From Escherichia phage PE37, in sequence record NC_054929.1: a stretch of DNA of 64,000 bases. One strand, 5' to 3'. The notes under the pieces are model-generated. The model did not search any database. It saw only the letters and a list, made by a program, of their open reading frames with translations, and was not told the origin of the DNA. The translations under genes were made by a program, and so were the position numbers. Shown here piece after piece: positions 59,642 to 63,784 of the stretch; position 1 is the stretch's first letter, and each line of letters starts with the position of its first letter.

Positions 59642-60338
<697 letters not shown>

Positions 60339-60350
60339 TTTCATAAAGTT

Positions 60351-60389
60351 GTTTACATACTGATGAGGTAGTGATACTATTACCTCATC
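60351..60389 (+). promoter_or_regulatory. early promoter with stem-loop (PeSL-like)
   Basis: GTTTAC at 60351-60356, TGaTACTAT -10 at 60375-60380; IR GATGAGGTA (60362-60370) / TACCTCATC (60381-60389). Confidence 0.65.
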
Positions 60390-60410
60390 AAAATTAATTA
60401 GGAAAATAAA

Positions 60411-60695
60411 ATGAAAACTTATCAAGAATTCACTTCAACGACTAACGCTTCTACTTTGACTGAAGCGACCCTTACTTCTGAAGTTATTAAAGCAAACAAA
60501 GGACGTGAAGGTAAACCGATGATTAGCCTGGTTGATGGCGAAGAAATCAAAGGTACTGTTTACCTAGGTGATGGGTGGTCTGCTAAAAAGGATGGTGCTA
60601 CAATCGTTATCTCTCCTGCTGAAGAAACTGCTTTGTTTAAAGCCAAGCATATTTCAGTAGCTCAGCTTAAAATTATTGCTAAAAATCTTTTGTAA
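60411..60695 (+). CDS. internal-protein candidate with capsid targeting signal
   Basis: N-terminus MKTYQEF...LTE-A matches CTS and prohead-protease L-x-E site pattern of T4 internal proteins. Confidence 0.6.
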   Translation: MKTYQEFTSTTNASTLTEATLTSEVIKANKGREGKPMISLVDGEEIKGTVYLGDGWSAKKDGATIVISPAEETALFKAKHISVAQLKIIAKNLL

Positions 60696-60713
60696 TAAAT
60701 TTTTCACAAAGTT

Positions 60714-60751
60714 GTTTACATAGGGTTTTAGTTGTGATACTATTACCCTAT
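60714..60751 (+). promoter_or_regulatory. early promoter with stem-loop (PeSL-like)
   Basis: GTTTAC at 60714-60719, TGaTACTAT -10 at 60738-60743; IR ATAGGGT (60720-60726) / ACCCTAT (60745-60751). Confidence 0.65.
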
Positions 60752-60771
60752 CAACTACTGAGGAGAATAAA

Positions 60772-60957
60772 ATGAAACGCTGTGAATTAATTCGAAATGT
60801 TGCTATTGCAATTTCTGCTTCCGCTTTTAGTTTTTCAATGTTTGTTGGATTTATATGCGGATTATTGACTACAGCAGAAAATGTTTTTTCACTTGTAGTA
60901 GCATTTTTAATTAGTTTAATTGCTATCGTTATGGATAAAATTTCTAAAGGTGAATAG
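60772..60957 (+). CDS. small two-helix membrane protein (61 aa)
   Basis: two hydrophobic stretches of about 20 aa; follows early promoter cassette. Confidence 0.5.
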   Translation: MKRCELIRNVAIAISASAFSFSMFVGFICGLLTTAENVFSLVVAFLISLIAIVMDKISKGE

Positions 60958-60958
60958 A

Positions 60959-61339
60959 ATGTATAAAGTGTACGCGGATTATCAGGCTAATCCATCTGAA
61001 AAGCCAGATTGCCAAATTGGATGGGCTCATGATACCCTGCTTGAAGCAGTAGATGCTGCTCAAAAATTAGGATATAAATATGTAGAGATTGTTCAACCGA
61101 CAGGAAAAGTTATTACTCTTGAAGAGTTCAATAATATTAAACCGAACTTTTTACTTTTTGCAGGTGATAATTATTATCCTCGCGGTGGATATGCTGATTT
61201 AATCGCGAAAGCCGCTACCGAAGATGAACTCCGTGACATTATCAAAGAAAATGAGAACAAACCAATGTATGGTTCTAATCGCTTTGATTGGTGGCAAATC
61301 GTAAATGCCCACACTCATACTATTGTTGATGAAGGCTGA
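60959..61339 (+). CDS. hypothetical protein (126 aa)
   Basis: ATG at 60959 immediately after previous stop; track start 60920 overlaps upstream gene. Confidence 0.5.
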   Translation: MYKVYADYQANPSEKPDCQIGWAHDTLLEAVDAAQKLGYKYVEIVQPTGKVITLEEFNNIKPNFLLFAGDNYYPRGGYADLIAKAATEDELRDIIKENENKPMYGSNRFDWWQIVNAHTHTIVDEG

Positions 61340-61341
61340 TA

Positions 61342-61629
61342 ATGATTCTTTATGCGAAAGTATCGTCCATTGAAAATGGATATAAATATGATCAAGACGC
61401 GGCTAAAGCCTTGATTGATGATTATGGCGTTTTAACATGTTTTGAAGTTGAAAAGGTTTACATTGACCGTTCATCTTCTCAAGTTAAATTAGTAAAGGAA
61501 GACCGTAAATTTAATACAGTAAATTTTGATTTCTTTATTGAAACGGAAAAAGGTCCTCTTGAATATGATATTTTCAAGAATCCTTTGGGTCTTGAATGCA
61601 TCGTAAATATGTATTATCATAAATGGTAA
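61342..61629 (+). CDS. hypothetical protein (95 aa)
   Basis: ATG 3 nt after previous stop. Confidence 0.5.
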   Translation: MILYAKVSSIENGYKYDQDAAKALIDDYGVLTCFEVEKVYIDRSSSQVKLVKEDRKFNTVNFDFFIETEKGPLEYDIFKNPLGLECIVNMYYHKW

Positions 61630-61632
61630 ATA

Positions 61633-61657
61633 TGCTTTAAGAATTATTTGTTATTAT
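61633..61657 (+). promoter_or_regulatory. MotA-dependent middle promoter candidate (tRNA cluster)
   Basis: MotA box TGCTTTA at 61633-61639, 12-nt spacer, TATTAT at 61652-61657; 29 nt identical to the gene 31 promoter copy. Confidence 0.55.
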
Positions 61658-61726
61658 TAACTCATATCGCATTGATTAATACCCTCTATCATCAAGGGTT
61701 CTTTCCTGAGAGCCTTTGTTAATAAT

Positions 61727-61799
61727 TGGGAATTAGCCAAGTTGGTAAGGCACTGGATTTTGATTCCAGGATGCAAAGGTTCGAGTCCTTTATTCCCAG
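61727..61799 (+). tRNA. tRNA-Gln (anticodon UUG)
   Basis: cloverleaf by eye: acceptor TGGGAAT/ATTCCCA, anticodon stem CTGGA/TCCAG, loop TTTTGAT, T-loop TTCGAGT. Confidence 0.85.
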
Positions 61800-61800
61800 C

Positions 61801-61887
61801 GCGAGAATGGTCAAATTGGTAAAGGCACAGCACTTAAAATGCTGCGGAATGATTTCCTTGTGGGTTCGAGTCCCACTTCTCGCACCA
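61801..61887 (+). tRNA. tRNA-Leu (anticodon UAA), type II with long variable arm
   Basis: acceptor GCGAGAA/TTCTCGC, anticodon loop CTTAAAA, T-loop TTCGAGT, encoded CCA. Confidence 0.85.
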
Positions 61888-61892
61888 AATTT

Positions 61893-61966
<74 letters not shown>

Positions 61967-61976
61967 ATTTAATTTA

Positions 61977-62050
61977 CTCCGTGTAGCTCAGTTTGGTAGA
62001 GCGCCTGATTTGGGATCAGGAGGTCCAAGGTTCAAATCCTTGTATGGAGA
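61977..62050 (+). tRNA. tRNA-Pro (anticodon UGG)
   Basis: anticodon stem CCTGA/TCAGG, loop TTTGGGA, T-loop TTCAAAT; acceptor has G-U pairs; no encoded CCA. Confidence 0.8.
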
Positions 62051-62052
62051 CT

Positions 62053-62142
62053 GGAGGCGTGGCAGAGTGGTTTAATGCACCGGTCTTGAAAACCGGCAGT
62101 CGCTCCGGCGACTCATAGGTTCAAATCCTATCGCCTCCGCCA
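62053..62142 (+). tRNA. tRNA-Ser (anticodon UGA), type II
   Basis: acceptor GGAGGCG/CGCCTCC, anticodon stem CCGGT/ACCGG, loop CTTGAAA, long variable arm, encoded CCA. Confidence 0.85.
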
Positions 62143-62147
62143 GTTTT

Positions 62148-62223
62148 GCTGATTTAGCTCAGTAGGTAGAGCAACTCACTTGTAATGAGAAGGTCGGCGG
62201 TTCGATTCCGTCAATCAGCACCA
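62148..62223 (+). tRNA. tRNA-Thr (anticodon UGU)
   Basis: acceptor GCTGATT/AATCAGC, anticodon loop CTTGTAA, T-loop TTCGATT, encoded CCA. Confidence 0.85.
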
Positions 62224-62224
62224 A

Positions 62225-62299
62225 GGCCCTGTAGCTGGAAGGTTCAAGCAAGCGACTCATAATCGCCAGATGGTGGTTCAATTCCACCCAGGGCCACCA
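62225..62299 (+). tRNA. tRNA with CAU anticodon (Met or lysidine-type Ile)
   Basis: acceptor GGCCCTG/CAGGGCC, anticodon loop CTCATAA, T-loop TTCAATT, encoded CCA. Confidence 0.8.
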
Positions 62300-62308
62300 A
62301 ATTAATTT

Positions 62309-62395
62309 GGGGAGTTATCCCGTAGAGGTAGCGGTGTGGACTGTAAATCCATTGTCATTGCGACTCGGGTGGTTCGACTCCATCACTCCCCACCA
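62309..62395 (+). tRNA. tRNA-Tyr (anticodon GUA), type II
   Basis: acceptor GGGGAGT/ACTCCCC, anticodon loop CTGTAAA, variable-arm hairpin, T-loop TTCGACT, encoded CCA; D-arm atypical. Confidence 0.75.
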
Positions 62396-62399
62396 ATTT

Positions 62400-62474
62400 G
62401 GATGTGTAGCTCAATGGCAGAGCGATCGCCTGTTAAGCGATTGGTTATAGGTTCGAATCCTATCACGTCCGCCA
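62400..62474 (+). tRNA. tRNA-Asn (anticodon GUU)
   Basis: acceptor GGATGTG/CACGTCC, D-stem GCTC/GAGC, anticodon stem ATCGC/GCGAT, loop CTGTTAA, T-loop TTCGAAT, encoded CCA. Confidence 0.88.
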
Positions 62475-62478
62475 AATC

Positions 62479-62554
62479 CGAGGCATAGCTCAGAAGGAAG
62501 AGCAAGGACCTTCTAAGTCCTAGGTCGTAGGTTCGATCCCTACTGCCTCGACCA
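62479..62554 (+). tRNA. tRNA-Arg (anticodon UCU)
   Basis: acceptor CGAGGCA/TGCCTCG, D-stem GCTC/GAGC, anticodon stem AGGAC/GTCCT, loop CTTCTAA, T-loop TTCGATC, encoded CCA. Confidence 0.88.
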
Positions 62555-62570
62555 ATTAAGTGAGGAAAAT

Positions 62571-62921
62571 ATGAAAGGTAATGTTTATTTAGTAGTTCAT
62601 GATTTAACATTTTATTTTAATCACAATGACACGGTTATTTCTGAACGTGTAATTAATTTGCTTTATCAACACGCGGATTATGTTTATGTCGAAAACGAAT
62701 ATGGTCATTGGCAATTTCTCAAAAATCGTTCATTTGGCTTAGATGGTTACGAATACTTTGAACGTAAAGACCTTTTAGATAAAATTTCGTTATCTACACA
62801 ATATCAAAATCATAAGTCTTTACATAAATGTCGGCTAATTCGAAATGCTGAATCTGCTTATGAAGCAATTGATTTATGGCGTTTACGCCGTGAACAAATT
62901 GATGCTTTAAAAGAATATTAA
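62571..62921 (+). CDS. hypothetical protein (116 aa) inside the tRNA transcription unit
   Basis: ATG 17 nt after tRNA-Arg 3' end with GAGGAAAA RBS. Confidence 0.5.
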   Translation: MKGNVYLVVHDLTFYFNHNDTVISERVINLLYQHADYVYVENEYGHWQFLKNRSFGLDGYEYFERKDLLDKISLSTQYQNHKSLHKCRLIRNAESAYEAIDLWRLRREQIDALKEY

Positions 62922-63310: not shown

Positions 63311-63784
63311 ATGAAATCATATACTCAATTTTTAAATGAAGCGGTGTTAAATGAAGCATCTAGCACCGAAATTCAAGCTGTCGCAAAAGCAGCCATTGCA
63401 GCGGGTAAATATTCTTACAAAGATGCTTCTGATGAATCGCGATTCCAGTTTGCACGCGACATGAAAGCGGAAGGATTTACGGGAAATGCAGTTAGTATGG
63501 CCTGGAAAAGTTTAGTTGCTACTGGCGCTGCTTTTGCAAAGGCTTCGGGTAAACCTGCTCCTAAAGCAGATCCTAAAGTCGCACAAGAGAAAAATATTGT
63601 TAAAGGAATTATCTCCAAATATGAAGCTATCCTTAAAGAGCTTTTAGTAATCAAAACTGAAGGCCAAAAACTAGCTCGTGCTTATAGTTTCAAAGATAAC
63701 CCACATGCTCACTCTCTTGAGTATGTTGAAGACATCCAAAAAATTATTAAAGACCGCATTTGGTCTGCTAAACAAATCAAATAA
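63311..63784 (+). CDS. internal-protein candidate with capsid targeting signal
   Basis: N-terminus MKSYTQFLNEAVLNEA (CTS-like with L-x-E sites); late promoter at 63263-63270; terminator downstream. Confidence 0.55.
   Translation: MKSYTQFLNEAVLNEASSTEIQAVAKAAIAAGKYSYKDASDESRFQFARDMKAEGFTGNAVSMAWKSLVATGAAFAKASGKPAPKADPKVAQEKNIVKGIISKYEAILKELLVIKTEGQKLARAYSFKDNPHAHSLEYVEDIQKIIKDRIWSAKQIK

Follow-up and report, generated by a model that had tools for sequence, protein, structure and literature searches.

The three small open reading frames (ORFs) located between the internal protein gene ipI and the tRNA genes of Escherichia phage PE37 are the T4 early genes trna.4, trna.3, and trna.2, and as such form a known and ordinary Tequatrovirus locus. 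They represent catalogued T4 ORFs, shared by sequenced phages in their hundreds, and the locus holds nothing surprising for this genus. The internal duplication of Trna.3, the mobility of trna.3 alleles, and the linkage of Trna.2 to tRNA nonetheless provide testable handles on this part of the T4 'dark matter'. All coordinates given below refer to the window, that is, the whole 64,000-nucleotide stretch of record NC_054929.1 that was analyzed. The region belongs to a Tequatrovirus (T4-like) genome.

Organization and regulation of the locus

According to the initial annotation, three tightly spaced ORFs lie between a CTS protein and the tRNA promoter. This layout was recovered in full, with plus-strand ORFs of 61, 126, and 95 amino acids at exactly the same coordinates and stop-to-start gaps of 1 nt (ORF1/ORF2) and 2 nt (ORF2/ORF3). 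Every start is preceded by a Shine-Dalgarno-like motif (GAGGAG, AGGTGA, and GAAGG). The CTS protein just upstream belongs to the IPI type of internal proteins (Pfam IPI_T4, E 5e-52) and is the last of a series of plus-strand genes that also comprises gene 3, gene 1 (dNMP kinase), 57A, and 57B. The latter encodes Acb1 (Pfam E 2.7e-60) with a protein sequence 100 % identical to that of T4. Within the 64-kb window, no further paralogues of the ORF1, ORF2, or ORF3 families were found. The features of the locus are as follows:

60702..60754, plus strand: PeSL-type composite early promoter and stem-loop, heading the three-ORF unit directly after ipI
60772..60957, plus strand: ORF1, trna.4 orthologue (Y07D, PF26870), 61 aa, predicted membrane hairpin formed by a pair of hydrophobic helices
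60959..61339, plus strand: ORF2, trna.3 orthologue, 126 aa counted from the ATG
60959..61138, plus strand: ORF2 N-terminal domain, residues 1-60, the hypervariable one of the two domain copies, exchanged horizontally
61139..61339, plus strand: ORF2 C-terminal domain, residues 61-126, conserved copy (FLLFAGDNYYPRGGY...WWQIVN), PF26894 (Y07C)
61342..61629, plus strand: ORF3, trna.2 orthologue (Y07B, PF27001), 95 aa, acidic
61633..61657, plus strand: putative middle-promoter-like site in the gap between ORF3 and tRNA-Gln, with MotA box TGCTTTA, 12-nt spacer, and TATTAT
61727..62554, plus strand: array of 10 tRNA genes (ARAGORN, Rfam), directly downstream of ORF3

The element heading the unit contains a promoter-like match with a -35 hexamer TTTACA at 60715, a 17-nt spacer, and a -10 hexamer TACTAT ending at 60743, overlapped by a hairpin of -19.3 kcal/mol (z -3.3). 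It recurs as a direct repeat ahead of ipI (60339-60391, 81 % identical), and annotations of related phages mark the equivalent site as an early promoter. The PeSL consensus of T4 and PST reads TTTACW-N17-TAYWAT (Comeau et al. 2014, PMC4122927). By these sequence features, the site at 60715-60743 qualifies as a PeSL: a consensus promoter overlapping a stem-loop and repeated in the genome. Variable genes flanked by PeSLs in the hyperplastic regions of T4-type phages (Arbiol et al. 2010, PMC2839356; PMC4122927) likewise start with a consensus-matching cassette, and the likeness extends to a second cassette copy, which here brackets ipI. Unlike such genes, however, the trio does not vary in presence or absence, variation being limited to ipI and to the allele of trna.3, and the trna.3 exchange described below has its left breakpoint at the start codon rather than at a PeSL.

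As to the tRNA promoter of the initial annotation, a middle-promoter-like sequence is indeed present at 61633-61657, albeit as a putative site read from the sequence; the corresponding consensus TGCTT ... TATTAT is quoted in PMC4122927. No terminator-like sites were found across 59800-62700. Since no such site thus separates ORF1 from the end of the tRNA array, read-through into the tRNA genes appears likely. The PeSL-type early promoter would accordingly drive three translationally coupled genes that are probably co-transcribed with the downstream tRNA array. Older T4 work by Broida and Abelson from 1985 reportedly bears on this co-transcription of ORFs and tRNAs.

Orthology, distribution, and dispensability

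The T4 counterparts of ORF1, ORF2, and ORF3 are AAD42682, AAD42681, and AAD42680 (UniProt P13322, P13323, and P13324, i. e., Y07D, Y07C, and Y07B, respectively). On the protein level, ORF1 is 98 % identical to T4 (60/61 residues) and 82 % to RB69, and ORF3 reaches 95 % and 79 %, as compared to 56 % and 40 % for ORF2. The T4 locus resembles that of the window in position (ipI, three ORFs, tRNA-Gln), gene lengths, spacing, and PHROGs, and an orthologous trio is also carried by RB69. The trna.3 genes of T4 and the window, in contrast, are different, anciently diverged alleles. All three proteins have full-length PHROG matches (ORF1, phrog_1692, E 6.7e-34; ORF2, phrog_1411, E 9e-56; ORF3, phrog_2023, E 1e-47), and all three PHROGs are labelled 'unknown function'. 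The Pfam families of trna.4, trna.3, and trna.2 are PF26870 (Phage_T4_Y07D), PF26894 (Phage_T4_Y07C), and PF27001 (Phage_T4_Y07B), assigned via precomputed annotations on homologues and named after a newer Pfam release; PF26894 is precomputed on all full-length ORF2 homologues and PF27001 on all ORF3 homologues.

The initial annotation regarded the trio as uncharacterized cargo, of which the first word holds and the second does not. Searches with the three proteins against Pfam-A, PHROGs, NCBIfam, and PADLOC returned only sub-threshold noise or 'unknown function', and the PDB was equally uninformative. In a full-text search of the literature for trna.2/3/4 or Y07B/C/D, no main-text discussion was found, the mentions being confined to supplementary tables. 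Orthology to T4 is clear, but the T4 proteins concerned are themselves uncharacterized. As regards cargo, the set is orthologous to that of T4 and RB69 and occupies the same place in roughly 760-800 T4-like records per gene. In tblastn searches, 789 (ORF1), 763 (ORF2), and 802 (ORF3) phage records were matched, next to 1413 for the T4-like marker gene 1, which places the trio in about 790 of about 1413 T4-like records. About 500 records match at Tequatrovirus-level identity for gene 1 and ORF1 alike, and the trio is present in essentially every one of these. With region 60339-61726 as megablast query, 683 phage records were matched, 187 of them with at least 80 % query coverage (best 97.3 % identical). 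In all T4-like loci examined, Y07D comes first, followed in some by an additional Y07C-domain gene, then by the Y07C gene with two domains, Y07B, and the tRNAs, and this fixed synteny rules out mobile cargo. A locus search with the Y07C alignment covered 16 loci, 5 of which are not T4-like. A conserved pairing of Y07D with stand-alone Y07C outside the T4-like phages was also considered and rejected, since it is absent from L022, L025, L026, L030, and L031.

ORF1, ORF2, and ORF3 are genuine genes under purifying selection. The dN/dS values of ORF1 and ORF3 are 0.09 and 0.19 relative to T4 and 0.12-0.15 relative to RB69, and ORF2 has a value of 0.075 relative to SA20RB. Together with proteomics of the T4 orthologues, these values rule out chance ORFs. 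Time-resolved omics placed T4 trna.2 and trna.3 in the early class at both the RNA and the protein level, whereas trna.4 was early at the RNA level and undetected as protein (PMC9697503, supplement). In a CRISPRi-ART screen of T4, all three genes were scored 'Not Fit' and their function was listed as unknown (PMC11879866, supplement). In the HIDEN-SEQ transposon screen of T4, they are likewise non-essential, with 23/25, 39/40, and 16/17 TA sites hit (10.1101/2025.11.20.689424). In the text of the same study on conditionally essential and anti-defence genes (clinical isolates, cloned defence systems), the trio is absent, and the one comparison table consulted for its genes gives q = 1.0 (10.1101/2025.11.20.689424). 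All three genes are dispensable in T4.

The membrane protein Trna.4

The two hydrophobic helices initially noticed in the 61-aa ORF1 are clearly discernible, with 19-residue Kyte-Doolittle maxima of 2.03 (residues 10-28) and 2.33 (36-54). The hydrophobic stretches span residues ~10-31 and ~36-54 and are separated by TTAEN, the first of them containing a GxxxG motif (G26-G30), and the overall GRAVY is 1.22. The T4 record annotates trna.4 as 'predicted membrane protein'. Judging from the basic N-terminus (MKRCELIR), the protein probably adopts a hairpin topology with both termini in the cytoplasm.

Such an architecture invites comparison with the exclusion and lysis systems of T4. Superinfection exclusion in this phage depends on Imm and Sp and lysis timing on T, RI, and RIII, and Imm itself is a two-helix membrane protein made early in infection. 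ORF1 resembles Imm in its small size, early expression, inner-membrane nature, and pair of hydrophobic helices, and Trna.4 is, moreover, highly conserved. An exclusion phenotype would also escape pooled lytic-growth screens such as CRISPRi-ART and HIDEN-SEQ. Nevertheless, the role in superinfection exclusion or lysis timing that the initial annotation had raised, with Trna.4 acting like Imm, Sp, RI, or a holin, appears very unlikely. There is no detectable sequence similarity between ORF1 and Imm, and no exclusion phenotype is known for Trna.4. Neither Pfam nor PHROGs gave a match to Imm, Sp, or any other named membrane family, nor to T, RI, RIII, or other holin families, and lysis genes are not adjacent. 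The only Pfam hits are the sub-threshold DUF7554 (E 0.07) and DUF2721 (E 0.31), and PADLOC returned a 2TM effector at E 0.053 only. By sequence, Trna.4 is thus unrelated to all named families. Furthermore, Imm and Sp already explain T4 exclusion, T, RI, and RIII explain lysis timing, and the early promoter and the early T4 transcript class speak against a holin-type role.

Domain duplication in Trna.3

A profile search with ORF2 among 1.84 billion representative proteins gave 542 matches at E < 1e-3, nearly all of which are stand-alone proteins of 55-110 aa that align to the C-terminal half alone. These share the motif [FY]LLFAGdxYYPxGGxxDL ... WWQIVDxxTxxIV, and the corresponding FLLFAGDxYYPxGG...WWQIV motif of the ORF2 C-domain is invariant in 20 homologues. 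Compared against this stand-alone family, the N-terminal half of ORF2 aligned over 56 columns spanning the whole domain (hhalign 92.8 %, E 4e-7), and the A3 HMM reports two domains in ORF2. Given this homology of the N-half to the stand-alone C-domain family, profile comparison shows that Trna.3 consists of two tandem copies of one ~60-aa domain, duplicated within the gene. Stand-alone Y07C-domain proteins whose context was examined are few and all reside in phages, and some T4-like phages possess a third, stand-alone copy just upstream of the two-domain gene. The AF2 model of ORF2, which supports the C-domain, has a pLDDT of 87. A Foldseek search of this model against the PDB gave a best E of 0.35 and none below 0.001, the BFVD yielded uncharacterized phage proteins only, and a PDB sequence search with the Y07C-domain profile returned no match.

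The real duplication of the locus therefore sits inside ORF2, and not, as the initial annotation had proposed, between ORF2 and ORF3. The strings on which this proposal was based, DAAQKLGY in ORF2 and DAAKALIDDYG in ORF3, do exist, and both proteins open with a hydrophobic strand that leads into a Gly-Tyr loop, with an Asp and a helix behind it. When the deep Y07B profile is aligned to the Y07C domain by hhalign, the top match keeps exactly this strand/loop/Asp/helix register. However, the similarity lacks statistical support. BLASTP of ORF2 against ORF3 gave E 4.2, and the hhalign probabilities were 0.26 %, 0.24 %, 0.7 %, and 0.15 %, while the two halves of ORF2 reach 92.8 % by the same method. 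The last two values stem from the deeper ORF3 profile, compared with the ORF2 domain family (0.7 %, E 0.077) and with full-length ORF2 (0.15 %). On these figures paralogy was rejected, and descent of ORF2 and ORF3 from one ancestral gene is to be considered extremely improbable.

Exchange of trna.3 alleles between phage genera

Along the trio, nucleotide identity between the window and T4 changes abruptly: it amounts to 97-98 % in ORF1, drops to 42-48 % from 60956, where the break coincides with the start of ORF2, recovers to 78-88 % in the C-domain, and is at least 93 % in ORF3. The dS of ORF2 relative to T4 is accordingly 1.2, as compared to ~0.1 for the flanking genes, and its dN/dS is 0.55 in the N-domain versus 0.10 in the C-domain. 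On the amino-acid level, the N-domain is 27 % identical to T4 and 90 % to a phage of another genus. ORF2 of the window and of locus L018 are 92 % identical (N-domain 90 %), whereas ORF1 and ORF3 of the same pair share 66 % and 48 %. Another Tequatrovirus locus (L023) carries a different ORF2 allele, common at 91-95 % identity to L019, L020, and L027, whose genus looks Dhakavirus-like as judged by tblastn matches. The T4 allele is 54-63 % identical to the window-, L018-, and L023-type alleles. Overall, cross-genus ORF2 alleles are 91-95 % identical as against 66-70 % for the flanking ORF1 and 48 % for ORF3.

The disagreement between allele and flank phylogenies shows, at the level of sequence comparison, that phages of different genera have traded trna.3 alleles irrespective of the adjoining genes. 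Such movement of alleles, especially of the N-domain, recalls adhesins and internal proteins. A host-dependent determinant would be expected to behave in this way, and the pattern marks trna.3 as a candidate for host specificity or counter-defence. As an alternative to selection, the exchange could also reflect hitch-hiking with PeSL-mediated shuffling.

Trna.2 and phage tRNAs

A profile search with ORF3 retrieved 87 homologues, some of them outside the T4-like phages, and their genomic context provides a lead: Y07B recurs at tRNA loci or next to tRNA enzymes in two unrelated phage subfamilies. In the T4-like loci examined, the gene lies directly upstream of the tRNA array. In the Cronus-like relatives of T4, it is found inside an expanded tRNA array, with tRNA-Asp on one side and tRNA-Lys or tRNA-Ile on the other. 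It thus stays with the tRNAs in phages in which the other two families are apart from it, since they lack the Y07D gene and have the Y07C gene ~3 kb away. The stop codon of Y07B even overlaps tRNA-Lys in L057. In the Vequintavirinae, all nine loci (9/9) have the Y07B gene 10-800 nt upstream of a gene for a PolyA_pol/HD tRNA nucleotidyltransferase, that is, a CCA-adding enzyme (mutual identity 64-100 %). Finally, one unrelated contig encodes an Rnl2 RNA ligase 1.4 kb downstream of Y07B. A Y07B scan of viral contigs gave T4-like and V5-like loci only.

Conceivably, Trna.2, and perhaps the whole unit, could serve the tRNA economy of the phage through maturation, 3'-end (CCA) repair, or protection of tRNAs or by blocking host tRNA nucleases. 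All of the above contexts would agree with such a function, yet we regard it as rather unlikely. The linkage was observed post hoc, and no more than two or three independent lineages show it. Three Y07B contigs (L010, L013, and L056) have no tRNA gene or RNA enzyme nearby; of these, L013 and L056 are related and carry HTH, MazG, and replication genes, with an SSB also in L013. Trna.2 itself has no RNA-binding or nucleotidyl-transfer motif, its acidic nature (pI 4.9) is unusual for an RNA binder, and the T4 screens found no fitness effect for trna.2. The AF2 model of ORF3 is unreliable (pLDDT 53), and a PDB sequence search with the Y07B-family profile returned nothing, with no known family or solved structure matching.

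Possible roles at the phage-host interface

In our view, it is an evenly balanced proposition that the trio comprises early, dispensable, non-enzymatic binding proteins for host takeover or counter-defence. These small proteins, dispensable on laboratory E. coli, would act early in infection at the interface between phage and host. As an inner-membrane hairpin, Trna.4 would either target the membrane or be anchored there. Trna.3 may be a pseudo-dimer of the duplicated ~60-aa alpha/beta domain, with the C-domain retaining the core function of the family and the N-domain presumably conferring specificity by following a partner that varies among hosts. Trna.2 is envisaged as a small, beta-rich protein of a family whose genes stay close to those for tRNAs or tRNA enzymes. 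That these proteins bind rather than catalyze is suggested by the family alignments, in which G, F, W, V, L, I, N, and S make up most of the invariant positions and, among charged residues, a single Asp of the Y07C domain is invariant. In proteins this small, missing conserved catalytic residues are a weak argument against an enzyme. No reported phenotype of trna.4, trna.3, or trna.2 was found in the literature.

A more specific version would have the trio form a functional module, in which Trna.3 is a polymorphic, pseudo-dimeric inhibitor or ligand-binder with alleles traded among T4-like genera and Trna.2 a tRNA-directed factor. The N-domain alleles of Trna.3 would then match variable host defence or target proteins, and Trna.2 would either partner CCA-adding and repair enzymes or block tRNA-cleaving immunity. 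A tRNA-directed role of Trna.2 would explain the linkage to tRNA genes in the Tevenvirinae and to the nucleotidyltransferase in the Vequintavirinae. Taken as a whole, this module appears decidedly unlikely. Should either lead prove true, a new small-protein family would be added to the phage repertoire for counter-defence or tRNA maintenance.

The neighbouring genes also fit the broader proposal of early, non-enzymatic host-interaction proteins, in that Acb1 (57B) and IPI are proven counter-defence genes according to the HIDEN-SEQ text (10.1101/2025.11.20.689424). Guilt by association is weak in this case, since genes of varied function lie together in the T4 early regions. Moreover, Acb1 acts as a phosphodiesterase, and IPI is an inhibitor that bears a capsid-targeting sequence and is packaged and injected. 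Neither is homologous to the trio, which by inspection is devoid of an IPI-like N-terminal capsid-targeting sequence and for which no defence system is known as target. What the trio does share with T4 Acb1 (gp57B) and IPI* is an early/accessory neighbourhood, small size, and dispensability on K-12.

Direct repeats and divergence of ipI

The internal protein gene ipI, upstream of ORF1, is flanked on both sides by direct repeats of about 75 nt that are 81-84 % identical to each other:
60339-60416, repeat on one side of ipI
60702-60777, repeat on the other side of ipI
Judged from sequence, each copy carries a putative early promoter, a hairpin, a ribosome-binding site and ATGAAA, and the hairpin stems of the two copies differ in sequence while pairing is kept in both. 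This repeat pair is the promoter-early stem-loop (PeSL) arrangement, a proposed mediator of cassette shuffling, and is consistent with ipI being the variable gene of the locus. Compared with T4, the 5' part of ipI (60419-60475), which corresponds to the capsid-targeting/propeptide region, shows only 72 % nucleotide identity, as against at least 87 % in the remainder of the gene; the dS of ipI (0.41) exceeds that of the flanks.

Homologues of the Y07C and Y07B families

In some T4-like phages (Marfa-like; the L016 and L029 contigs), trna.4 and trna.3 are separated by an additional gene that encodes a Y07C domain on its own. One unrelated 48-kb phage contig contains two stand-alone Y07C genes in tandem. 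The Y07C family seems prone to tandem duplication. Coordinates of these stand-alone genes:
L005, 2688-2873
L016, 3595-3831
L029, 3384-3593
L031, 3623-3793
L031, 3992-4189

GmrSD is inhibited by IPI, encoded close to Y07B in T4, and it is therefore noteworthy that genes with a GmrSD_N domain (PF03235/DUF262) occur near Y07B homologues in two non-T4 phages, one gene upstream in L012 (5176-5724) and 3 kb downstream in L010 (9371-9913).

Naming of trna.2, trna.3 and trna.4

The T4 omics paper (PMC9697503, main text, section 3.3) describes an earlier microarray study as having 'only focused on tRNA 2, 3, and 4', a wording in which trna.2, trna.3 and trna.4, which are protein-coding ORFs, have probably been mistaken for tRNA genes.

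ORF3 end and tRNA array

A short direct repeat (82 %) spans the stop codon of ORF3, with a MotA-box-like TGCTTTA inside its second copy:
61600-61616, ATCGTAAATATGTATTA
61623-61639, ATGGTAAATATGCTTTA

Further downstream lie:
61727-62554, tRNA array of 10 genes (Gln, Leu, Gly, Pro, Ser, Thr, Met/CAT, Tyr, Asn, Arg)
62571-62921, uncharacterised ORF of 116 aa, phrog_3355 (unknown function), 3' of the array
63311-63784, uncharacterised ORF of 157 aa, 3' of the array
The homing endonuclease gene segB is absent from this 10-tRNA array, whereas the T4 array comprises 8 tRNAs with segB inserted before tRNA-Arg. The position of the 116-aa and 157-aa ORFs is that of rnaC and rnaD in T4.
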